Shown piece after piece: positions 1 through 14,957 of a DNA stretch of 35,119 nt. Made by a program: the position numbers and the translations under genes. The stretch lies in UHGV virus genome UHGV-0196339; one strand, written 5' to 3'. The stretch's first letter is position 1. Each line of letters begins with the position of its first letter. This stretch comes from a virus. The notes beneath the pieces were generated by a model. The model had not been told where the DNA came from and did not search any database. It was given only the letters and a program-made list of their open reading frames with translations.

Positions 1-9
1 GTGGTTGAA

Positions 10-477
10 TTATTGTTTAATGGCGTTTTCTATCCATGTCGCCAAATTGTTCTTGATATCGCTATAAGCGTCGTTAAAGTTAGGTTCATATACGAGTGGT
101 TTAATTACTCGATCGCCTCGCTTAAATGTAAATTGGTCGAAAGGATTCGGTCCTTTTGTCCCATAGCCGTTACGAGGGCATTTCAGTCGATGAATATAAA
201 TACCCACCACAGCCTTACCCTCTTTCCAGGCTCTTTCGATCTCATACTTGACCCATGGGCGATTAGCCGTTTGACTCCCGATCAGTACTACTAAGCAGGA
301 TTTGCCATTTAAGCTCTGATTAATCCAATTCTTCACGCCCTGCTCAGTTCGTTTAATTTGTTCCCAAGTATTTGGGCTGACCGGTTCATCCCCCTCCAGC
401 ACTCCCATGTTACGAATCTGCTGTACCCGCATAACATCGTTATCAAAGTGAAAGCTGTAAAATACCTTACGTTTCAT
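10..477 (-). CDS. thsB: Thoeris ThsB, TIR-domain protein
   Basis: 155 aa. N-terminal RKVFYSFHFDND, LVVLIGSQTANRPWVKYEI and KGPNPFD blocks match the ThsB TIR family. ATG lies 2 nt after the thsA stop, with an AGGAGG SD inside the thsA 3' end. AT-rich. Confidence 0.88.
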   Translation of the reverse strand: MKRKVFYSFHFDNDVMRVQQIRNMGVLEGDEPVSPNTWEQIKRTEQGVKNWINQSLNGKSCLVVLIGSQTANRPWVKYEIERAWKEGKAVVGIYIHRLKCPRNGYGTKGPNPFDQFTFKRGDRVIKPLVYEPNFNDAYSDIKNNLATWIENAIKQ

Positions 478-479
478 AT

Positions 480-1946
480 CTAACCTCCTAGTTTCTTTAA
501 AATTTCTAAAACTTTCATTTCGATATTTGCCCGATTAGCAGAGAGATCTGCAAGCTGAGCAACTTCCTTTTCCAACCAAGGGTACCGGACAAAATGTTTA
601 CTTGGATCCGTCAGCATCTCGTCAGCTAGTTCCTTGGCCATATAACCAGTGACGCCAAGTGGAAGCACGACAACCCCTGTTTCCTGAGCAATTTGAAACT
701 CCCTTCGGACCCCATCAGCATTAACGATTCGACCATCATGGAGTTTATTCCCAAAAAGGAATATAGCGATTCCAGAAAGACCAATCATACGCTGCCGATA
801 TTCGTCCCATAGCTCGCTCAGGGCTTTATCGTTTGATGAGTGTTGAGGGAATGGCCGCATGATAAGTTGCTCTTCTGAGTACTTATCAGGCTTAGAATAA
901 ATGGCTTCAAGAGCTCCGTTGATGACCGCACTACCAATACCCCATCCAAACCCATTGACAACTCGATAGCCATTCTTCACCAAAGATGACGAAAGTATGT
1001 GTACAAAGTTTAGTGCTTCCTGTTTGTCCCAAGCGCCATACTCTTCTGCACTACCAGATATAAATATGGTCTTCTTGAGGAAGCGACTCTCAATCTCTTT
1101 CAATATAAGTGGAATATCATCGTACTCGTTTACTAATACAGCCTGAATGCCAAAACGGAGCAAATCGCGAATATGATGTTCTTGCCTACGCTGCCTATAC
1201 ATAGCGCCAGCTTCATCTTCATTTCCTTGCGGCAGAGAGGGTTCCTTACGAAGAAAGCAGTAGTGTCTACGACGATGCTTCTCCGGAACATGCAATCGGC
1301 TCAATATGTAATCAAGATTAGGATCAGTAAAACTGAAGCCAATAAATAAGAATGTCTTAGAAATCAAATCTCCACTCAATGCTGTAACAAACCCCTCATG
1401 GGTCTTGTAGTACTGCTCATACTGAGCTTTATAAAGTATGGCGTCACCTGGCGAGCTAACATCACCATGCATTTTGTAAACAACAGCATCTCGTTTAGGA
1501 CGAGTGGAAATAAGATCATCGGTTCTGCGTTTAATATCTGCGACACGGTAGTTTTCTTTGAGACTATCTTCAATCAAAGTGTCATAGTTGGTTGTCCAAT
1601 AAGTTCTAATGGGTAGTCTAGCAAGGATTTTATGGGCTTCGGAAGGTTCCGCTTGCTCCGAGAATTCCTCTAGGATTTTTCTAGCTAAACCAGTTGAGCT
1701 GTTGTTCTTGTTGACATGGTATTGTGCAACCGAAATTAAGTCGTGCTCTAGCTCAACAGAAAGGCCTAATTCTTCAGCAATTTCACGCAGCAGTTCACTC
1801 CAATTAACGAAGCCGCTGGTTCTAGATAGGCCCGCACCAGCAAAAACGGCGGCAACCCCTTCTTCGAGATCCTTCACATAAGTCCTGATAAAAGCTTCAA
1901 CTTCAGCCGAAAACTGAACACTCATATTTTTAGACAATCCGGTCAA
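480..1946 (-). CDS. thsA: Thoeris ThsA, SIR2 (NADase) + SLOG domain protein
   Basis: 488 aa. SIR2 motifs FAGAGLS, TTNYD, YKMHGD, FIGFSFTDPNLDYILSR. C-terminal SLOG-like region (FISGSAEEYG, GFGWGIGS). Operon partner of thsB. Confidence 0.9.
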   Translation of the reverse strand: MTGLSKNMSVQFSAEVEAFIRTYVKDLEEGVAAVFAGAGLSRTSGFVNWSELLREIAEELGLSVELEHDLISVAQYHVNKNNSSTGLARKILEEFSEQAEPSEAHKILARLPIRTYWTTNYDTLIEDSLKENYRVADIKRRTDDLISTRPKRDAVVYKMHGDVSSPGDAILYKAQYEQYYKTHEGFVTALSGDLISKTFLFIGFSFTDPNLDYILSRLHVPEKHRRRHYCFLRKEPSLPQGNEDEAGAMYRQRRQEHHIRDLLRFGIQAVLVNEYDDIPLILKEIESRFLKKTIFISGSAEEYGAWDKQEALNFVHILSSSLVKNGYRVVNGFGWGIGSAVINGALEAIYSKPDKYSEEQLIMRPFPQHSSNDKALSELWDEYRQRMIGLSGIAIFLFGNKLHDGRIVNADGVRREFQIAQETGVVVLPLGVTGYMAKELADEMLTDPSKHFVRYPWLEKEVAQLADLSANRANIEMKVLEILKKLGG

Positions 1947-2338
1947 AAGATAGACATAAACTTCTTACCACAAACTAACCTTTGTAGTTCTATACACCGC
2001 TTTTACGCTGTGCTTTAGTATCCAAATGGATTCATTACTACTGGGGTCAGTACCTATTGAGTAAGTAGGTAGAAAGCCATTACTAGCTCCAATACTCGCT
2101 AAGTATATGAGGCAATTAGGTGGTATTTTCAAGTTCACCGAGCCTGATACAGGGCCATAGGAATAAATAGTCACATTTTCGTAGCTCTTTTCCACTATTG
2201 GTAGTTAAATAATTACTTTCACTTTATCGCTCAAAGCGTACTCTCAGGTTTATTGCTTTTTAGTTACATAAACCGTCAGTTAGAGTTTGTACCTGTACAA
2301 CCTAGAATAACGGTAGCAACACGTTTGGGGAGGTCGCA

Positions 2339-2599
2339 ATGTTCCGTTGTCCACTTTGTGGTGCATCTGCCCGTATCCGCACCAGTCGTCCGGAAAATGA
2401 TTCAAACACTGTACGACAAAAGTATTACCAGTGTAATAACTTAGAATGCGGCGTATGCTTCTCAACACTGGAAGCTTTTCATAAGTTCACATCAAAACAC
2501 ACCTCCTGCGTTCACTCTTCAGGGGATATTCCGTGGCATGAGCTGCCAGCTTCACACAAGGGAAACAATCAGATGAGTTTGCCTTTACCTCAGAATTAA
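2339..2599 (+). CDS. ogr: Ogr/Delta-type zinc-finger late-gene transcription activator
   Basis: 86 aa, MFRCPLCG...ARIRTSR...YYQCNNLECG: C2C2 zinc-finger pattern as in P2 Ogr. GGAGG SD upstream. Confidence 0.9.
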   Translation: MFRCPLCGASARIRTSRPENDSNTVRQKYYQCNNLECGVCFSTLEAFHKFTSKHTSCVHSSGDIPWHELPASHKGNNQMSLPLPQN

Positions 2600-2687
2600 C
2601 AAGCAGAATTGCCGGAGTAGCAAAAAAGCGATAGATTACGCGCGGGTGCCTTTCGGCTGATGGTCGGAGGGAATACCCGAAGGCCAG

Positions 2688-2924
2688 ATGTGGAAAGGCC
2701 CCGGAAAAACATCTCTGTTTAACCGAGGCCCTAACCGCATTACCTTGACAAGTGAAAGGTTAGCGCCTCTCCGGAAAAGGAGCAAGTGCTATGTCGCAAA
2801 AATCGCTTACGGCCATCACGTTCTGCGTGACGGCAATCCTCATCATCTGGATGCTGCACGGTTCGCTGTGCGAAATACGGATGAGCTTCTGGGGAGCGGA
2901 GTTTGCGGCGTTCTTACAGTGTAA
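2688..2924 (+). CDS. mok-like overlapping reading frame (modulator of killing) of the hok locus
   Basis: 78-aa ORF starting upstream of hok and overlapping it in another frame, the arrangement known for hok/mok/sok loci. No independent sequence support. Confidence 0.3.
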   Translation: MWKGPGKTSLFNRGPNRITLTSERLAPLRKRSKCYVAKIAYGHHVLRDGNPHHLDAARFAVRNTDELLGSGVCGVLTV

Positions 2925-2931
2925 GCAGTAA
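2791..2931 (+). CDS. hok: Hok/Gef-family type I toxin (small membrane peptide)
   Basis: 46 aa, MSQKSLTAITFCVTAILIIWMLHGSLCEIRMSFWGAEFAAFLQCKQ: N-terminal TM helix, then SLCEIR and E-x-AAF motifs as in Hok/Gef. AAAAGGAG SD at 2775-2782. Too short for the ORF track. Confidence 0.7.
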   Translation: MSQKSLTAITFCVTAILIIWMLHGSLCEIRMSFWGAEFAAFLQCKQ

Positions 2932-3020
2932 GGAAACCGCGACGGGGGAGCAATCCCCCGTCAATCGGTTGCCAAGGTAAGGTCGATAAGGCACCCTATC
3001 TCATAGAGATGAATAACAAA

Positions 3021-3052
3021 CCCGCAGCGTAAAAACTGCGGGGTTTCTTTTT
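3021..3052 (+). terminator. Rho-independent terminator of the hok transcript
   Basis: Hairpin CCCGCAG-cgtaaaaa-CTGCGGG followed by TTTCTTTTT. Confidence 0.5.
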
Positions 3053-3120
3053 GGAACTCTCACTAGCTAGTGTACCGTTAGCGGCACATAATGCTCGCAC
3101 AACAAACCAGTTAAAAGAGA

Positions 3121-3516
3121 TTACTCAGCATTCTCCTGCTTCCATTGCCGGATCATTTCATCGGTAACATCACTCTCATAACATACCACGTCATACCCTC
3201 CAGTACGGCTATATGCACTGCGTCCACCACATCTACTACCATTCCTTGCATGATTATAAGGACACGCACAATTGCCTGGATAAGATTCAATGGATTCTTT
3301 AATTATTTCTTTCTTGATCTGAGCATCTGACTTTCCTTTTGCTGCATACCCACTAAAAGATACCAAACAAAGGCAGATTGCCATTAATAAACCACATCGC
3401 ATACCGATACGCCCTATTACTAACCAATCATAGCCCACATCATAAAATCGAGATGAGGAGTACAACACCTTTAACAAGAAGGTGCCATCACGATAATATG
3501 TCGTGCAATTCATCAA
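3121..3516 (-). CDS. Hypothetical Cys-rich secreted or membrane-anchored protein (att-proximal cargo)
   Basis: 131-aa ORF. Internal Met at 3402 is followed by a signal-peptide-like segment MRCGLLMAICLCLVSFSGYAA and a Cys-rich domain (GNCACPY...RCGG...VVCY). The true start may be 3402, which has a better SD. AT-rich. Confidence 0.5.
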   Translation of the reverse strand: MMNCTTYYRDGTFLLKVLYSSSRFYDVGYDWLVIGRIGMRCGLLMAICLCLVSFSGYAAKGKSDAQIKKEIIKESIESYPGNCACPYNHARNGSRCGGRSAYSRTGGYDVVCYESDVTDEMIRQWKQENAE

Positions 3517-3870
3517 AAAAAAGATCTATATCAAAGAGATAGAGTTATTATCAGTGCTGCAGACATCAGCATTCGAGGCAGCAGAAAAACAGTTAATCTA
3601 ACGAATTTGTATTTTCTCAGGATGTTGATTAAAAAAGATAGATTAGCGCAGACACCTTTTGGCGGGTGGTAGGAGGAAAAATGAAGTTGAGTGGGAAGAT
3701 CCCAGAAAAAATTTTGATTTAACCAAGGCCCTAGTTCAACATGCGAAATACAGATTAGTTGCAGGAGAGTTCTGCTTCACGCTTAGAGCTTCAACAGACG
3801 TGCACTATCATTGTTTCTGCATATCGCCACATCATCGCCACTTTACCGCCATTGCACAAAATACAAATAC

Positions 3871-3895
3871 AAAAAAACCACCCGAAGGTGGTTTC
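3871..3895 (-). terminator. Intrinsic terminator (minus strand) downstream of int and the att core
   Basis: Hairpin CCACC-ttcg-GGTGG followed by a 7-T run on the minus strand. Confidence 0.4.
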
Positions 3896-3937
3896 ACGAC
3901 ACTGCTTATTGCTTTGATTTTATTCTTATCTTTCCCA

Positions 3938-3992
3938 TGGTACCCGGAGCGGGACTTGAACCCGCACAGCGCGAACGCCGAGGGATTTTAAA
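3938..3992 (-). other. Phage attachment core: 3'-terminal ~55 nt of a tRNA-Leu(UAA) gene (anticodon loop to CCA), not a complete tRNA
   Basis: Minus-strand sequence TTTAAAATCCCTCGGCGTTCGCGCTGTGCGGGTTCAAGTCCCGCTCCGGGTACCA matches the 3' part of enterobacterial tRNA-Leu (leuZ-like, recalled from memory). The 5' half (D-arm, acceptor 5' strand) is absent. Confidence 0.7.
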
Positions 3993-4098
3993 AACTATCA
4001 ACCACCATTTATATATCATAAAGTTATGATTTTATTAACTTTGCAAATGACTCTATACGACGCCATTTGAATCTATTGTCACTTTTTATCGCCACTTT

Positions 4099-5100
4099 TT
4101 ACCCTCTATTATCAAAAGGATTCAATTCAACAGCAGCCTCTAAATGACCTGGAGCAAAATGCGCATAACGCATAGTCATTTTTATATCGCTATGCCCCAG
4201 TATTTTTTGCAACACAAGAATATTTCCGCCCCGCATCATAAAATGACTGGCAAACGTGTGACGTAGCACATGAGTTAATTGCCCATCAGGAAGCTCGATC
4301 TTCGCTCTCTTAATTGCAGCGTCAAAAGCCTCATAACATGGTGAAAATAGCGCTCCTCGTTTTTTAGGAAGCATAGCCTGCAATTGAGGTGAAATAGGTA
4401 CAGTGCGGTTCTTCTTTCCTTTAGTTTTAACAAATGTGATTCGACCGGGCAGTACTTGAGATTGCTTTAATCCTTCTGCTTCACTCCACCGAGCACCAGT
4501 CGCAAGCCCAATACGGACAACAACCCCCAAATCTTTATTCCGTGACTCATCACACGAAATCAGAAGGCGTTCAATCTCATCTACATACAGAAACGCCAGT
4601 TCCTTTTCTTCCTCACGAAACTTGCGAATACCAGTCAGAGGGTTTTCACCAGACCACTCCCCAAGGCGCTTCAGTTCGGCAAAAACAGCATGTAGATATG
4701 ACTGCTCGCGATTAACGGTTGCTTCACTAAGTTTTTTCTTCCCCTTGGGATTCCATTCTCCTGATAGCCTTCTTTCCCGATAAGTAGCAAACATATTTTT
4801 GTCAAACTGAGAAGCAAATGGATCTCCCAGCCTAGAACAAATCGCCTCAAGTTTGACTTTGCGCTCTGCACCAGAGGACAAGGTTTTACCGTACATCTCA
4901 AACCAACGAGCAATCAACTCAGAAAGACGAGGACCAGAACCATCTTGAAACTCGTCTCCAACTCTACTATTCATTAAACGGCGCTCATAAGAGAGCGCCT
5001 CACTTTTTGTCGCAAACTGTTTACGAATGCGTTTTCCCGATGCCCCGTAGGGATAACATTCGCAAAGCCATTTACCTGATGGAATCTTACGAACCGACAT
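4099..5100 (-). CDS. int: Tyrosine recombinase / phage integrase
   Basis: 333 aa. C-terminal catalytic region with HVLRHTFAS, GHSDIKMTMRYAH (R-H-R-Y family). Adjacent to the tRNA-derived att core. Confidence 0.95.
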   Translation of the reverse strand: MSVRKIPSGKWLCECYPYGASGKRIRKQFATKSEALSYERRLMNSRVGDEFQDGSGPRLSELIARWFEMYGKTLSSGAERKVKLEAICSRLGDPFASQFDKNMFATYRERRLSGEWNPKGKKKLSEATVNREQSYLHAVFAELKRLGEWSGENPLTGIRKFREEEKELAFLYVDEIERLLISCDESRNKDLGVVVRIGLATGARWSEAEGLKQSQVLPGRITFVKTKGKKNRTVPISPQLQAMLPKKRGALFSPCYEAFDAAIKRAKIELPDGQLTHVLRHTFASHFMMRGGNILVLQKILGHSDIKMTMRYAHFAPGHLEAAVELNPFDNRG

Positions 5101-5105
5101 TTTAG

Positions 5106-5453
5106 TTACTTATCACATAAATCAAATGCAGCCTTAGTGACATCCCCCAGATTCTTTTTTAACCCTGGGGCGGCATCATTATCTAGCCAAAATGGATTAT
5201 TGTTATCTAACGGTAACGCACCAAATGTTTTACCTTTTATTCGAGCCAAACCTGTAAGCGCATATAACTTATTATCGTCAAAATTCATCACATAAGGATT
5301 ACCATCAAGACACTGTAATTGAACCTCATCAGTATTAAATGGCCATACCCCATTGAAACTCTCACGTTCAATAGTTTTAAAAGGCATTGCGACGGCAGAA
5401 AAAGAAAACATAAATAAAAAAGTAACTAATAGTTGAATCTTTTTTACTTTCAT
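5106..5453 (-). CDS. Hypothetical secreted (signal-peptide) protein, lysogeny-operon cargo
   Basis: 115 aa. N-terminal MKVKKIQLLVTFLFMFSFSAVA signal peptide, two Cys in the mature part. GAGGT SD. 5-nt gap to int, AT-rich. Confidence 0.6.
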   Translation of the reverse strand: MKVKKIQLLVTFLFMFSFSAVAMPFKTIERESFNGVWPFNTDEVQLQCLDGNPYVMNFDDNKLYALTGLARIKGKTFGALPLDNNNPFWLDNDAAPGLKKNLGDVTKAAFDLCDK

Positions 5454-5482
5454 ATCATTACCTCAATTTAGCTCAAGTAAGA

Positions 5483-6133
5483 TTACAAATTAAAAAACAT
5501 CCTAGAAATGGCACCGCCTACCAAAACCCCTACGCAGATAAAGAATATTATTTCTTTTGGATAAAGTCGGATTAATTCTGAAGCACGAAGTCGGACTTCT
5601 GGTAAGGTCGAATTCTCTGTGTTGCTTGATACCGATTGTTGCTCTAACCACGACAATGCAGACTGTAACTGAGAACGAGTAAGATCGTTTAAACGTCCTG
5701 TACCGAAATTGATATGGCAATACCGCAGAAGTTTTTGTCGAAGTCCACAGTCTTCACTGTTACGTAGTAATAAACTTACAAGAGTCTTACAGGCATCATG
5801 ATCTTTACATCGCTCAAGCATTGCATGCAGAAAACTCTCCGCTGTTTTATATTGATTTACTGTCATATCATCAATACCAGCTACACCAATCTCCGCATGT
5901 ACTTTTTGCCAAATAATAAACGCTTCAGTATTGCTAGCTTCTGCAATAGCAGCAACCAAGCTATTTAGCTCCTTACGCTGAGCCTTAAGCAAAGGGCGAT
6001 CGTCATCATCATTATTCGAAGGGATTGCGATATTGACGATATGAGAACCATCATATCGATCTATCTGAATATTCTTTTCGTGAAAATCACGCCCAGCAAC
6101 GCGATTGTTTGAACCGTTTGAGTTGACGGCCAT
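5483..6133 (-). CDS. Hypothetical tail-anchored membrane protein, lysogeny-operon cargo
   Basis: 216 aa. C-terminal hydrophobic helix IIFFICVGVLVGGAISRMFF. N-terminus SNNRVAGRDFHE repeats the repressor C-terminal motif. GGGAGG SD, 15-nt gap to the repressor stop. Confidence 0.6.
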   Translation of the reverse strand: MAVNSNGSNNRVAGRDFHEKNIQIDRYDGSHIVNIAIPSNNDDDDRPLLKAQRKELNSLVAAIAEASNTEAFIIWQKVHAEIGVAGIDDMTVNQYKTAESFLHAMLERCKDHDACKTLVSLLLRNSEDCGLRQKLLRYCHINFGTGRLNDLTRSQLQSALSWLEQQSVSSNTENSTLPEVRLRASELIRLYPKEIIFFICVGVLVGGAISRMFFNL

Positions 6134-6148
6134 GTCACCTCCCTACTA

Positions 6149-6553
6149 TCACCTACCCTTAGTTTCGTTATAGTCACGACCAGCGATACGGTTATTACCA
6201 CCAGAAATATTTAACTCACGTCCTGATGGCTGAGTTTCCTTTTCACTGACCGCACCTTTTAAAGCCCCGATCACCGCGTTTTTCACATCTAACGAAGCTG
6301 CTCGAAAGCGAGTAATCAACTCCTGCTCATCATCGTTATAAGTTTCAGGTGAGTGAATTCCCAACACAACATACTGAACATCAAGGCCAAAACGAGACAG
6401 CGCTGCCAAATACGCAGCATCAGGAAAGCTATCTCCTTTCTCATATCTAAGCTGAGTTAGCTTTTTGACTCCACCAATGTCGCTCATAGCAACTTGACTA
6501 AGCCCCAATCTTTCCCTTTCCTCACGCAACCGCTGACCAATATCATTTTTCAT
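6149..6553 (-). CDS. XRE-family HTH repressor (cI-like immunity repressor)
   Basis: 134 aa. N-terminal HTH (LGLSQVAMSDIGGVKKLTQLRYEKG). Divergent from the early operon. First gene of the repressor-cargo-int operon. Confidence 0.75.
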   Translation of the reverse strand: MKNDIGQRLREERERLGLSQVAMSDIGGVKKLTQLRYEKGDSFPDAAYLAALSRFGLDVQYVVLGIHSPETYNDDEQELITRFRAASLDVKNAVIGALKGAVSEKETQPSGRELNISGGNNRIAGRDYNETKGR

Positions 6554-6628
6554 ACAAAAACCTTGACAAGTATCTTTTTTGATACCAAAATAATTTCACG
6601 AGCTATTAGATGATCACAATATACCACT
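6554..6628. promoter_or_regulatory. Divergent early/repressor promoter-operator region
   Basis: 75-nt intergenic region between divergent genes. TTGACA at 6564-6569. Palindrome GTATC-tttttt-GATAC at 6571-6586 is a candidate operator. Confidence 0.4.
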
Positions 6629-6835
6629 ATGAAACAAGTTCTTCACGATACCAGATCACGCATTCCGCGTAACACCGCCACAGGTCCAAGACTGGCACTT
6701 CGGCTGTCCCTCGAGGAGCGAGCCGTCATTGATGAAATGGCAGCTAAAGAGCAACGCTCATCCTCTAACATGGCGCGCATGATCTTCCTTCGCGGCCTAG
6801 AGCTAACCCAGAAAGAACAAAACAAATCTTCCTGA
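6629..6835 (+). CDS. Small ribbon-helix-helix-like early regulator (Cox/Cro-position protein)
   Basis: 68 aa. LALRLSLEERAVIDEMAAKEQRSSSNMARMIFLRGLE resembles an RHH beta-alpha-alpha fold. First ORF of the rightward early operon. No clear SD. Confidence 0.45.
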   Translation: MKQVLHDTRSRIPRNTATGPRLALRLSLEERAVIDEMAAKEQRSSSNMARMIFLRGLELTQKEQNKSS

Positions 6836-6851
6836 TCAGGAGGCTAGTGGG

Positions 6852-7084
6852 ATGTCAGGTATAACCATCAATATCAATGTGAATGCCCCCTATGTATCCC
6901 TGCAGAAATATGCAGAGATAACAGGTATCCCTCCGAGGTCGACGAACGCCTGATTACCACTATCGACAAACATCGTTCGGAAAAGGATGCACACCACATC
7001 TACCTCACTGACGGCACTTACTTCTGCGCCACCAACGTGGCGCGAGTAAATCTTATCCGACAGGTACAGGAGCCACGCAGATGA
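6852..7084 (+). pseudogene. Frame-disrupted HTH/excisionase-like early gene (frameshift near 6930-6945)
   Basis: ATG at 6852 gives MSGITININVNAPYVSLQKYAEITGIPPRS then stop at 6951. The +2 frame continues open as DERLITTIDKHRSEKDAHHIYLTDGTYFCATNV... to a TGA overlapping the next ATG at 7081, with no in-frame start of its own. Confidence 0.35.
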
Positions 7085-7347
7085 CCATTCTGGACTACAT
7101 CGCTACTCATCCGGGGTGTAGCGGCGGAGAGATCGCCGCAGCACTGAATACCCCAACCACAGCCATTAATGCTGAGTTACGCCGACTTTGGCGCGGCGGC
7201 TTAGTCATCAGAACAAACCGCAGCACAGGTGGTCGCGCTCGCAAAACAGGAGGCCAAGCTTCTTACCACGTAAACCCGATGCCGTTCGGGTGTAGCAATC
7301 CACTTACTCACATGTTTAACCAGCTACTGAAGGAAGCCAGAGCATGA
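7081..7347 (+). CDS. Small winged-helix-like DNA-binding protein (early operon)
   Basis: 88 aa, AGGAG SD. ILDYIATHPGCSGGEIAAALNTPTTAINAELRRLWRGGLV resembles a wHTH. Confidence 0.55.
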   Translation: MTILDYIATHPGCSGGEIAAALNTPTTAINAELRRLWRGGLVIRTNRSTGGRARKTGGQASYHVNPMPFGCSNPLTHMFNQLLKEARA

Positions 7348-11586: not shown

Positions 11587-12708
11587 ATGGGCGACTTAGG
11601 TGGTATTCAGTCAGATTTAGCCCAACTAGTTAGACTGGTAATAACTGAACAGTATGATGACGTTCGGTTATATGTCGCTCGCTTGGTGCGTAAATATCGG
11701 GAAACTATGCCTGCTCTATCCGAGCAGCTTGATCTTTATCTACGAAATAAACCGCAAAAGCCTGCACAAAGCCTGCGTAAGGTTACCGCACCAAAACAAG
11801 CGCTGCCTCAAACCATGCCTGTGGACGAGGAGTCAAGGCTTACCTTGCTTAAAGCACCAAATGAAAAGATTGTGAGCAAACCTCTACTGTCCAGTCAGAT
11901 AGAAGACTCACTGGATCAAATTATTCTTGAGCGGAAGCACATCGATCGCCTCAAGACTCTCGGCTTACAACCAACACGCTCTGCCATTTTTGTTGGCCCT
12001 CCGGGTGTAGGTAAAACACTTACGGCAAGCTGGTTAGCTCAGAAATTAGGGGTTCCTTTTTACGTTCTTGATTTAACGGCAGTAATGAGCAGCTATCTGG
12101 GCAAAAGCGGAAATAACCTTCGGGCAGCTCTAGATTTTGCGAAGAAAGGGCCGTGCGTTCTTCTGTTAGATGAAATTGATTCAATCGCCAAAAAGAGAAG
12201 TGATGATTCTGATGTTGGAGAATTAAAAAGACTTGTTACAGTGATACTCCAGGAGGTTGACGAATGGCCGTCTTCTAGTTTGCTACTTGCTGCAACTAAC
12301 TTCGCTGAGTTGATTGATCCAGCACTATGGAGACGTTTTGATTTAGTGCTCAATTTTGAGAAACCAGATAGCGAAAGTATTAAAGAAGCAATTAAACGCT
12401 TTTCAGGTCCCGACTACGCGATTTTTGCACGTTGGATAGATCTACTGGCTATTATGTTCAAAAATGAATCTTTTAGTAATATTGAGCGTTCTATCAACAA
12501 ATTCCGACGTTCGGTCGCTTTAGGTATTTCCTCAGATGAAGAGTTGATTGGGTCGTTCATTAAAGATGGTTTATCAGAATTAGACAGGAATGAACGTAAA
12601 GAAATTGCAGTTACTCTAAAAAGAAATTCTAAATTATCCCAGCATGCCATATCAGACTTAACCGGAGTCAGTAGGGATACAATTAGAAAATACAGTCAAA
12701 AAATGTAA
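11587..12708 (+). CDS. AAA+ ATPase with C-terminal HTH-like segment (IetA-like)
   Basis: 373 aa. Walker A GPPGVGKT, Walker B LLLDEID, sensor-1 ATN, Arg finger region WRRFD. C-terminal LSQHAISDLTGVSRDTIRKY resembles an HTH. AT-rich. Confidence 0.8.
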   Translation: MGDLGGIQSDLAQLVRLVITEQYDDVRLYVARLVRKYRETMPALSEQLDLYLRNKPQKPAQSLRKVTAPKQALPQTMPVDEESRLTLLKAPNEKIVSKPLLSSQIEDSLDQIILERKHIDRLKTLGLQPTRSAIFVGPPGVGKTLTASWLAQKLGVPFYVLDLTAVMSSYLGKSGNNLRAALDFAKKGPCVLLLDEIDSIAKKRSDDSDVGELKRLVTVILQEVDEWPSSSLLLAATNFAELIDPALWRRFDLVLNFEKPDSESIKEAIKRFSGPDYAIFARWIDLLAIMFKNESFSNIERSINKFRRSVALGISSDEELIGSFIKDGLSELDRNERKEIAVTLKRNSKLSQHAISDLTGVSRDTIRKYSQKM

Positions 12709-12731
12709 TACAGCATAGATAAGGAGTATGT

Positions 12732-14957
12732 ATGGCGAAAACTAATTTTCTGATTGGACGCGGCGAATTATTAACCAGCGATATTCCTGGTCCTAAAAGA
12801 GTGCCCGGAAAAGCTGAGGTTTATTCTCTTTACGAATCGAAACAACGTTTATTGCCGCAAATTGCATCTACTATAGAAAATTTTGATGATTTACCCAGTC
12901 AGGCATGTCCTTATGATTATGCTGTGGCTAAGTTGACGTTGAATCCGAGCTATATTGCACGCTCTTTTTTTCCTGCAAAAATGCTTAAGTCTACCGGGTT
13001 AACGTCTATTGGCAGCAGGACGGTAAAAATTACGCCTCAAAGCTGGAAGCGAAAAGTTACTGTGTCAGAAGTAACTACGACACAAATGTTTGTTGCTGGT
13101 AAAAGAGAATCCTTCAAAGAGTTACCTCATTGGGTGTCAGGACTCAAAGAGTTTTCTGACGAAGCGATTGATTTTGCACGCATAGAACGGTTCGATGCCT
13201 ATTTACCCGAAGAGCGTATTATTACCATTGGTGAGCAGGATTCTTCGTATTTTGAGGTTGGTGTTCATTTACTGCCAGATAATGAACAAGACTTGGTTCA
13301 GCAACAATTTGTTCAGTTTGCATCAAATTTGAACATCAAAGTACATACTTCATTAGCTTTTACCGCTGGTACATTATGGTTCGTGCCAATCCAGGCCGAT
13401 AGAATTACTATTAGTAAGCTTGCGAAATTTACATTTGTACGAGTAATAAGACCGGTTCCAAGATTGCGTGGGATTAGACCAATACAAAGGAACTACGGTC
13501 CTTTAGCTCAGTGTAAATTGCCTGCTGAGGGCCCCGTATCTTCAGAAATAAAAGTTGCGATTCTTGATGGCGGTTTACCATCAGAGCACGCTATATCGCC
13601 ATGGTTAAAATCCTATAGAGTTTTGGACGATCATGCAGAGGATGATCCAGACGGTTTAGAACATGGTTTAGCTGTGTCTTCAGCCTTTTTATTTGGACCA
13701 ATAAGTAATAAATCGGAAGCGAAAAGACCATACTCTTATATTGATAACTTAAGAGTTTTGGACAACAAGACCTGCCAAGAAGATCCGCTGGAACTATATC
13801 GAAATTTGGGCTTTATTGAAGAGGTATTGTTGTCTCGCCAGTATCAGTTTATCAATCTAAGTTTAGGTCCAGACCTACCAATTGAAGATACGGAAGTTCA
13901 TGCATGGACTTCCGTTATTGATGATTTGTTAAGTGATGGTGAAACATTAATGACTGTTGCTGTTGGCAACAATGGAGAAATGGATCGCAAGTCTGGTAAT
14001 GCAAGAATTCAAGTACCAGCCGATTGCGTTAATGCTCTTGCTGTTGGTGCTTGTGATACAGTTAATGATACGGAATGGAAACGAGCACCATATAGCGCCA
14101 TTGGGCCAGGCAGAAGTCCTGGCGTGATGAAACCGGATTTAGTTGCGTTTGGTGGTGACACAGACGAGTACTTTCATGTTTTAGGTAAAGGTAAGAAGCC
14201 TGTAATCATACCCCAGCTAGGAACAAGCTTTGCCTCTCCTTACGCCTTACGAGCAGCTGTTGGTGTTCGGGCAATTTTAGGGAACGATTTGAGCCTACTA
14301 GCAATCAAAGCTTTGTTAATTCATGCGTCAAAACAGCTTGATCATCCTTGTACAGAAGTTGGCTGGGGAAAACTTCCTGAAGACTTGAACGACATTATAG
14401 TCAGCCCTGATGGTGTTGCCCGTATCGTCTACCAAGGTGAATTGAAACCAGGAAAATACTTACGCGCTCCTCTTCCAATACCTGAAGGTGGCTTGAAAGG
14501 TAGAATAAACTTAGCGGCAACTTTCTGTTATGCAACAACCACTGATCCACAAGACCCAGCTTCCTATACAAAAGCTGGTTTGGAAGTGACATTCCGGCCA
14601 AATGATTCAAAAATCAAAGACGGAAAACAAAATGCTGAAACCAAGGGATTCTTTGAACTGGCCAAATATTCAACTGAAAGTGAGCGACGTTCTGACATGG
14701 GCAAATGGGAGACCGTCTTACATAATTCGAAGAACATGCTCGGTTCAACTCTAAAAAATCCTGTATTTGACATTCATTATAACGCTCGTGAGGCCGGTGC
14801 AAGCATAGCCAGCCATAAGGCAGAAAAAATCAAGTATGCTCTTATAATTACCATTAAGGCATCAAAGCACCAAGACCTGTATAACGAAATTTTACGTACT
14901 TATAATCAGGTGCTCGTGCCAATTCAACCGCAAACATCAATTCCTATTCGTTCGTAA
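12732..14957 (+). CDS. S8-family subtilisin-like serine peptidase with N- and C-terminal extensions (IetS-like)
   Basis: 741 aa. Subtilase motifs: Asp in VAILDGG, His in LEHGLAV, oxyanion Asn in VGNNG, Ser in GTSFASP. AAGGAG SD 5 nt upstream, 23 nt after the ATPase stop. Confidence 0.85.
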   Translation: MAKTNFLIGRGELLTSDIPGPKRVPGKAEVYSLYESKQRLLPQIASTIENFDDLPSQACPYDYAVAKLTLNPSYIARSFFPAKMLKSTGLTSIGSRTVKITPQSWKRKVTVSEVTTTQMFVAGKRESFKELPHWVSGLKEFSDEAIDFARIERFDAYLPEERIITIGEQDSSYFEVGVHLLPDNEQDLVQQQFVQFASNLNIKVHTSLAFTAGTLWFVPIQADRITISKLAKFTFVRVIRPVPRLRGIRPIQRNYGPLAQCKLPAEGPVSSEIKVAILDGGLPSEHAISPWLKSYRVLDDHAEDDPDGLEHGLAVSSAFLFGPISNKSEAKRPYSYIDNLRVLDNKTCQEDPLELYRNLGFIEEVLLSRQYQFINLSLGPDLPIEDTEVHAWTSVIDDLLSDGETLMTVAVGNNGEMDRKSGNARIQVPADCVNALAVGACDTVNDTEWKRAPYSAIGPGRSPGVMKPDLVAFGGDTDEYFHVLGKGKKPVIIPQLGTSFASPYALRAAVGVRAILGNDLSLLAIKALLIHASKQLDHPCTEVGWGKLPEDLNDIIVSPDGVARIVYQGELKPGKYLRAPLPIPEGGLKGRINLAATFCYATTTDPQDPASYTKAGLEVTFRPNDSKIKDGKQNAETKGFFELAKYSTESERRSDMGKWETVLHNSKNMLGSTLKNPVFDIHYNAREAGASIASHKAEKIKYALIITIKASKHQDLYNEILRTYNQVLVPIQPQTSIPIRS

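Follow-up and report, generated by a model that had tools for sequence, protein, structure and literature searches.

Matching tails of a prophage repressor and its partner, and a variable gene slot before the integrase, in the immunity operon of a P2-like phage

Layout of the repressor-to-integrase operon

The virus genome UHGV-0196339 (35,119 nucleotides (nt); this whole stretch is referred to below as the window) carries, between the genes for a repressor and a tyrosine integrase (int), two open reading frames (ORFs), orf216 and orf115, which a preliminary description made from the sequence had presented as an unrecognised membrane-plus-periplasm pair with the layout expected of superinfection-exclusion or abortive-infection cargo. 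As stated there, four minus-strand genes span 4099-6553 in the order repressor-orf216-orf115-int; they are separated by gaps of 15 nt (repressor/orf216), 29 nt (orf216/orf115) and 5 nt (orf115/int). They make up the lysogenic (immunity) operon of a P2-like phage, in line with the placement of both genes in a repressor-to-int operon (Table 1). The constant element of such operons is the repressor together with a downstream partner, here orf216, that has a matching tail.

Within 4099-6553 no terminator-like site was found on the minus strand, and the sole such site in 3600-7100 lies at 3895-3874, beyond int. The two middle genes are AT-rich, as had been noticed, with a guanine-plus-cytosine fraction of 0.345 for orf115 and 0.402 for orf216, compared to 0.444 for the repressor gene, 0.443 for int, 0.51 for the whole window and 0.56 for the structural genes. 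Good Shine-Dalgarno (SD) sequences had been reported for the whole series; this stands for orf216 (GGGAGGTGA) and orf115 (TTGAGGT) and fails for int, which has none and starts 5 nt past the orf115 stop codon. In the switch region, the promoter-like site facing the early operon reads TTGACA-17-CAAAAT and matches the consensus at 10 of 12 positions. A search for operator-like repeats in the same region gave none, and the consensus scan did not place a promoter for the repressor gene.

Table 1. Features of the repressor-to-integrase segment in window coordinates (aa, amino acids; AF2, AlphaFold2; HTH, helix-turn-helix)
Feature	Position	Strand	Basis
Terminator-like hairpin and T-run, 3' of int	3874..3895	-	terminator scan
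int, tyrosine integrase, 333 aa, last gene of the operon	4099..5100	-	Pfam Int_N and Phage_integrase
orf115, 115 aa, predicted secreted protein of DUF2511/YebY fold, variable-slot cargo	5106..5453	-	Pfam, phmmer, AF2
orf115 predicted signal peptide, residues 1-23, without lipobox	5385..5453	-	sequence
orf216, 216 aa, predicted tail-anchored inner-membrane protein with cytoplasmic Flk_N, fixed partner of the repressor	5483..6133	-	profiles, synteny
orf216 predicted C-terminal transmembrane anchor, residues 192-214	5492..5560	-	hydropathy and AF2 helix
orf216 predicted helical cytoplasmic domain, residues 46-171	5621..5998	-	confident in AF2 model
orf216 N-terminal tail motif VNSNGSNNRVAGRDFHEK, residues 3-20	6074..6127	-	matches repressor tail; disordered in AF2
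Intergenic spacer, 15 nt, with orf216 SD GGGAGGTGA	6134..6148	-	sequence
Repressor gene, HTH (XRE-type) prophage repressor, 134 aa, first gene of the lysogenic operon	6149..6553	-	Pfam and PHROG
Repressor C-terminal tail motif NISGGNNRIAGRDYNETKGR	6152..6211	-	invariant among repressors 35-60% identical overall
Promoter-like site for the divergent early (lytic) operon, 75-bp switch region	6563..6591	+	consensus match only

A fixed repressor-partner pair with matching tails

The product of the first gene matches the Pfam families HTH_31 and HTH_3 as well as transcriptional-regulator and repressor families of PHROG, and its family is annotated as the repressor in the phages B3 (ORF18), BcepMu (gp17), KS10 (gp13) and Ps59. 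Across about 95 loci (in E. coli, Klebsiella, Enterobacter, the Serratia group, Mixta, Hafnia, Arsenophonus and others; a genome scan with alignment A3 gave 10 loci only), a gene for a protein with a Flk_N domain directly follows the repressor homologue, save in one degraded prophage. The two genes are separated by 2-18 nt, or overlap by 4 nt, in all related loci. Beyond these P2-like prophages of many Enterobacterales, the repressor-partner pairing is also present in Mu-like phages, including B3 ORF18/ORF20, BcepMu gp17/gp18 and KS10 gp13/gp12. These loci show a fixed pairing of the repressor with its downstream partner, and orf216, which had been taken for exclusion or abortive-infection cargo, is not variable and is found wherever this repressor type occurs.

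Comparison of the protein ends revealed one motif in both members of the pair. The repressor over its final ~18 residues (NISGGNNRIAGRDYNETKGR) and orf216 over residues 3-20 (VNSNGSNNRVAGRDFHEK) agree at 10 of 18 residues; only 4 of these 10 share a codon, so that the motif is kept at the protein level. Recent gene conversion as the source of the similarity is ruled out by the same codon usage. A read-through or frameshift fusion of the two genes was also rejected, given three intervening stops (the spacer adds two in-frame stops, for TGA TAG TAG in total) and spacers in the relatives that are not frame-consistent.

In distant family members the repressor tail and the partner tail change together, and the motif takes a different form in each lineage (NR.AGRD[YF], QQF.G.V..V..GD, F..RDIVN, HGDVG..V.G.V.I and SG.GI.QV). 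The tails of repressor and partner, respectively, read QQFNGPVGTVTTGDVVN and QQFHGAVEQVAAGDIKN in the Mu-like locus L103, FNAPISGGEFAARDIVNH and FNNQIHDGQFAGRDIVNN in the further locus L106, VVHGDVGQTVKGNVTIEGG and IIHGDVGIVAEGDVIQNNS in the P2-like locus L107, and ISVTGDGNRTAGRDFHE and IEVTGSNNIVAGRDFIE in B3 ORF18/ORF20 (L109); both tails also match in BcepMu gp17/gp18 (L110) and KS10 gp13/gp12 (L111). Cognate tails outscore non-cognate pairings (permutation p about 5e-5) and composition-preserving shuffles (z = 4-12). The body that carries the motif can differ: B3 ORF20 has a non-Flk_N body with two transmembrane helices, and KS10 gp12 contains Flk_N and lacks the membrane anchor. Literature searches for BcepMu gp18 or for a repressor-linked membrane protein found nothing, and as far as these searches show, the repressor-partner unit with co-varying tails is undescribed.

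Following the shared motif, almost every repressor terminates in a short run of basic residues (KGR, NKK, GRKK, TRKK, GKK or KKRK; window 6152-6163, for example). This basic end could be a separate recognition signal, e.g. for a protease.

Homologues of orf216 carry the Pfam domain Flk_N (PF27202), with precomputed hits on essentially all of them, and the NCBIfam model of the flagellar protein Flk aligns its residues 21-152 with residues 38-169 of orf216 at E = 5.5e-16. However, orf216 is not an orthologue of Flk: it scores 58.8 bits where the equivalog cut-off is 353, and it is 216 aa long, compared to about 333 for Flk. The PHROG family phrog_5825 matches it over its full length, and weak profile hits point to antirepressor and ORF6C-type proteins. 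The family is small, with 137 representatives among 1.84 billion proteins. For orf216, a search of BFVD gave nothing significant (best E = 8.5e-3) and a sequence search of the PDB gave no hits. Pfam matches to zinc-finger and ELYS families were rejected, being sub-threshold and involving unconserved cysteines; of the five cysteines only C139 is nearly invariant across the wider family, so that a metal site is unlikely.

In the AF2 model of orf216, the N-terminal tail (residues 1-40) is disordered, with a predicted local distance difference test (pLDDT) value of about 35, and the first helical bundle of the domain resembles the C-terminal domain of Red-beta, a peptide-tail binder. Hydropathy has its maximum at residue 195, the hydrophobic helix spans about residues 195-213, and the protein stops 3 residues past it, as its homologues do after 0-8 residues. 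Sequence and model are consistent with the topology first proposed, namely a predicted tail-anchored protein with a single C-terminal hydrophobic helix, the rest of which would be cytoplasmic.

Variation among the partner genes includes a mosaic allele, P0006, with an N-terminal half of P0020 type and a C-terminal half of window type. Two further loci with DUF8087 cargo (L064 and L065) combine a 94%-identical repressor with a 70%-identical partner. Both observations show recombination inside the partner gene. Prophages of K. pneumoniae are rich in the family (P0090 lies on 754 contigs), which also occurs in Arsenophonus.

The slot before int and the prophage that carries it

Between the Flk_N gene and int, the related loci hold zero to three genes, in 58 distinct sequences that yield 11 clusters of predicted proteins and at least eight plausible cargo families. 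The contents comprise DUF2511 proteins of the orf115 type, DUF8087-like proteins, proteins of 288-295 aa with an N-terminal BRCT domain, a family of 291-298 aa (F5), a 242-aa membrane protein, a 137-aa secreted protein, three-gene sets, and nothing. Over its full length, family F5 shares 34% identity with Orf2 of Vibrio phage K139 (E = 9e-51), a homologue therefore, and it matches the PADLOC candidate PDC-S48. These contents show a variable accessory slot upstream of int. In one Mu-like phage (L103, 4597-5862), a gene for a 123-aa protein and then a TIR_2-domain gene come between the pair and the lysis genes, so that defence-like cargo at this place is not confined to P2-like phages.

The treatment of orf216 and orf115 as a pair does not survive this comparison, since homologues of orf216 combine with DUF2511, DUF8087, BRCT or other cargo, or with nothing: the repressor-orf216 part is fixed in related prophages and the gene before int varies. 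What holds of the proposed membrane-plus-periplasm pair is the accessory locus, for which K139 provides a precedent, and not the single module; the idea was partly right for orf115 and wrong for orf216. In K139, the lysogenic transcript has the order cI-orf2-glo-int, where glo encodes a periplasmic protein with an annotated role in phage exclusion. Between cI and int, K139-like phages have a hotspot of variable content (Rousset et al. 2022, PMC9122126), and the NAR 2026 survey locates 8% of P2 defence systems between int and primase. On account of the K139 layout, this hotspot and the survey, orf115 can be assigned to a known kind of accessory slot. Neither orf216 nor orf115 has sequence similarity to K139 Orf2 or Glo.

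For orf115, the Pfam profile PF10709 (DUF2511/YebY) scores 25.9 bits (cut-off 21) over residues 28-113 and profile positions 2-87 of 87, and phmmer matches the protein to E. coli YebY (PDB 7N0J) at ~29% identity. The AF2 model of orf115 (pLDDT 74) aligns with 7N0J at E = 1e-4, with template modelling (TM) scores of 0.64/0.78, and with two structures of MlbQ (2MVO and 6QFP) at E of about 1e-2; no other PDB match falls below E = 1. All 13 homologues compared keep Cys48 and Cys113, which correspond to the disulphide cysteines of YebY. The N-terminal Sec-type signal peptide noticed earlier is again predicted from sequence, with putative cleavage at ...SAVA|MP. By its context orf115 is not a YebY orthologue, as it lies in a prophage between orf216 and int and not with yobA and yebZ. 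YebY itself is a periplasmic, weak copper binder that damps YebZ-dependent copper import (PMC8689200, PMC11923076), MlbQ is a proposed lantibiotic-binding self-resistance protein (PMC8689200), and the 2021 paper on YebY had drawn attention to homologues of it in Enterobacteriaceae that are encoded between a CI repressor and a recombinase (PMC8689200). Profile and structure searches thus assign both proteins, neither of which had been recognised in the preliminary description, to families that were already catalogued, DUF2511/YebY in Pfam, with a solved structure, and Flk_N; no defence family was assigned, and the PADLOC 2.0 profiles gave no family at E <= 1 for either protein.

Escherichia phage 520873 (Peduoviridae, Xuanwuvirus) shares 98% identity with the segment. 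At 95% identity or above the segment is present in about 500 of 5426 complete E. coli genomes, adjoining yecA, and the DNA of the two genes in about 505-525, so that about 10% of these genomes have the prophage; carriers include O157:H7 (as prophage CP-933T), O26, O103 and O111 strains. The two genes are nearly always together in E. coli (orf216 in 525 and orf115 in 507 of the 5426 genomes), a joint presence that goes back to a single widespread lineage of prophage (95-99% identity). Both are missing from P2 itself, as had been expected from the adjacency of C and int there, and among 50,697 deposited phage records only phage 520873 has them. In that record (L001, NC_049344, 1039-3065), int is given as two coding sequences, the orf216/orf115 region is without annotation, and tblastn covers this region only in 3-4 pieces; the broken reading is probably due to frameshift errors. 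Full-length homologues of orf216 and orf115 at 58-70% identity occur in many genera, so that both are real genes.

In strain EC21Z-048, window positions 1-3992 and 4099-6900 map to the two ends of a single prophage, with ~30 kb between them. Since the left 4 kb maps to the other prophage end, the window represents an excised, circularly joined phage genome, and the attachment site attP is between about 3992 and 4099. No intact tRNA gene is present.

Further observations concern the rest of the window. The first early-operon gene (6629-6835, plus strand) encodes a 68-aa protein that is called Arc-like in phage 520873 and has no Pfam match; in RefSeq genomes its place is taken by an antisense ORF of 45 aa, annotated upstream of the repressor gene (window 6643-6825, minus strand). 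The AT-rich gpA-gpQ hotspot (11587-14957, plus strand) holds a two-gene IetAS defence system, with the AAA ATPase IetA (E = 1e-77) and the subtilase IetS (E = 1.2e-51). At 10-1946, on the minus strand, lies a Thoeris-like pair, with a ThsB TIR gene (10-477) and a ThsA SIR2-STALD gene (480-1946), and genomes matching this region annotate ogr/Delta and Hok/Gef genes nearby. With the Thoeris-like pair the phage has a third defence locus, close to its att end.

Interpretation and comparison with known systems

The overall reading, whose chances we put at about even, is of an immunity operon in three layers. The first two are shown by the related loci, namely a fixed core of the HTH repressor and a translationally coupled orf216 with its predicted membrane anchor, and a variable accessory slot of one to three genes, occupied here by orf115; the third is the integrase. 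In the proposal built on this layout, orf216 would modulate the repressor at the membrane rather than serve as defence cargo, tying the amount or the activity of the repressor to the inner membrane. In its favour are the fixed pairing, the co-varying tails and signs that Flk_N domains bind proteins, such as the contacts made by Flk, the Red-beta-like bundle and the weak antirepressor hits. Because both tails carry the same lineage-specific motif, they may bind each other or compete for one site, for which the three-helix bundle of Flk_N, a protease or an antirepressor are candidates. The product of orf115 would be exported to the periplasm as lysogenic-conversion or exclusion cargo, most likely binding a ligand or an envelope component, and the outcome could be superinfection exclusion (as for K139 Glo), protection from a peptide toxin (as for MlbQ) or damping of copper import (as for YebY).

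Several points weigh against this proposal. The interaction between repressor and orf216 is inferred. The similarity of the tails could be the relic of an old duplication at the gene junction, with the two copies kept for separate reasons, and a conserved exclusion protein under the immunity promoter would look alike. The membrane location is not universal, as KS10 gp12 has no anchor. For orf115, exclusion is indistinguishable from metal or peptide binding, and the PADLOC defence models match neither protein.

A more far-reaching version, in which the repressor and its usually membrane-bound partner communicate through their terminal motifs and thereby switch the repressor on or off, seems to us rather improbable. 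Communication could proceed by beta-strand or amyloid-like templating, or by mimicry of one tail by the other. That such a switch would be an undescribed form of lysogeny control common to P2-like and Mu-like phages (B3, BcepMu, KS10 and CP-933T) is put forward with the same considerable doubt. The amyloid reading belongs to this version only; an NLR/STAND receptor and a Bell/HeLo-type effector, further hallmarks of that class, are absent, and cross-beta fibrils would be a prediction.

Other explanations of the two genes were weighed against the layered operon. That orf216 and orf115 form a single two-component system of superinfection exclusion or abortive infection, spanning membrane and periplasm, would fit two adjacent, co-oriented genes 3' of a repressor, their near-constant co-occurrence in E. 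coli (525 and 507 of 5426 genomes) and the exclusion protein at the same place in K139. The co-occurrence, however, comes from a single prophage lineage at 95-99% identity, and in other lineages the partner stands with DUF8087, BRCT, K139-Orf2 homologues, other cargo or nothing. As orf216 tracks the repressor and not orf115, as recombinant orf216 alleles speak for an exchanged junction, and as PADLOC matches neither gene, we judge a joint system to be quite unlikely. A somewhat better case, still an unlikely one, can be made for orf216 alone as a conserved exclusion or abortive-infection membrane protein comparable to lambda RexB, P22 SieA or HK97 gp15, with an incidental similarity of tails. 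It would be a membrane protein expressed from the immunity operon, and K139 has an exclusion gene beside its repressor; Sie2009 and Ltp of Gram-positive phages are exclusion genes next to repressors as well. With 0-8 residues past the helix, however, the protein could not meet an incoming phage in the periplasm, which makes periplasmic exclusion unlikely. Exclusion genes are usually variable, whereas orf216 is conserved over P2-like and Mu-like phages that differ in their tails and their hosts. This explanation also leaves the co-varying tail motif unaccounted for, and the absence of an anchor in KS10 gp12 speaks against it.

The homology to Flk residues 21-152 (E = 5.5e-16) and the shared tail-anchored topology would also agree with orf216 as a phage-borne Flk that targets the switch of flagellar type III export, whether to convert motility or to block flagellotropic phages. 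The score of 58.8 bits against the equivalog cut-off of 353, the abundance of the family in prophages of the non-flagellate K. pneumoniae (P0090, 754 contigs) and in Arsenophonus, and its presence in Mu-like phages of other Proteobacteria make a flagellar role very improbable. As to orf115, it is possible, if on the unlikely side, that the protein is not directed against phages and alters host physiology, either by limiting copper import through YebZ/YobA, as YebY does, or by binding a peptide antibiotic, as proposed for MlbQ. The fold and the disulphide cysteines are those of YebY, which reduces copper uptake through YebZ (PMC11923076), and of MlbQ, a proposed lantibiotic binder (PMC8689200); homologues of YebY were already known between recombinase and CI repressor (PMC8689200). 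On the other hand, orf115 is only ~29% identical to YebY, and other cargo of the slot is defence-like, namely the K139 Orf2 homologues that match PDC-S48 and the TIR gene in one Mu-like phage.

We know of no account of how the non-SOS-type repressors of these phages are controlled. If the layered operon with a repressor-modulating orf216 is correct, the immunity region of widespread temperate phages would be a two-protein unit of repressor and usually membrane-anchored partner, with a scope extending from a prophage in ~10% of complete E. coli genomes to the model Mu-like phages B3 and BcepMu, and the co-varying tail motif would offer a precise and cheap experimental handle on this control. 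The slot before int could then be mined for exclusion and defence genes, like the two classical P2 hotspots; the slot itself has clear precedent, and the families of both proteins are on record.

Among known systems, K139 is likewise a P2-related phage with extra same-strand genes of variable content between repressor and int. Its cI is a different, larger repressor without a Flk_N partner, whereas the slot described here follows a fixed repressor-partner pair. Flk of Salmonella and E. coli (Fluke, RflH) is a tail-anchored inhibitor that acts through protein contacts at the flagellar export gate (PMC13344023, PMC6794478), and shares with orf216 the Flk_N domain, the cytoplasmic orientation and the C-terminal tail anchor (PMC6794478). 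Compared to Flk, the phage Flk_N proteins have ~200 aa instead of 333, lack the long linker and are encoded beside a prophage repressor; they also have the N-terminal motif, which is absent from Flk with its Flk-type start (MQP...). With YebY (7N0J) and MlbQ, orf115 has the signal peptide, the fold and the conserved Cys48-Cys113 pair in common, and it differs from YebY in sequence (~29% identity) and in its prophage context, which replaces the yobA-yebZ-yebY operon. Amyloid signalling pairs (HET-S/NWD2, BASS, and Bab/Agp of E. coli) likewise place a motif at the C-terminal end of one protein and the N-terminal end of its neighbour, and in a prophage setting. The repressor-orf216 pair differs from them in having no NLR/STAND, Bell or HeLo/pore-forming effector, in its shorter and more charged motif, and in that one partner is a transcriptional repressor. 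Finally, the P2 hotspots (gpA-gpQ and Z/fun) are also variable accessory loci of P2-like phages and differ from the slot before int in their location.

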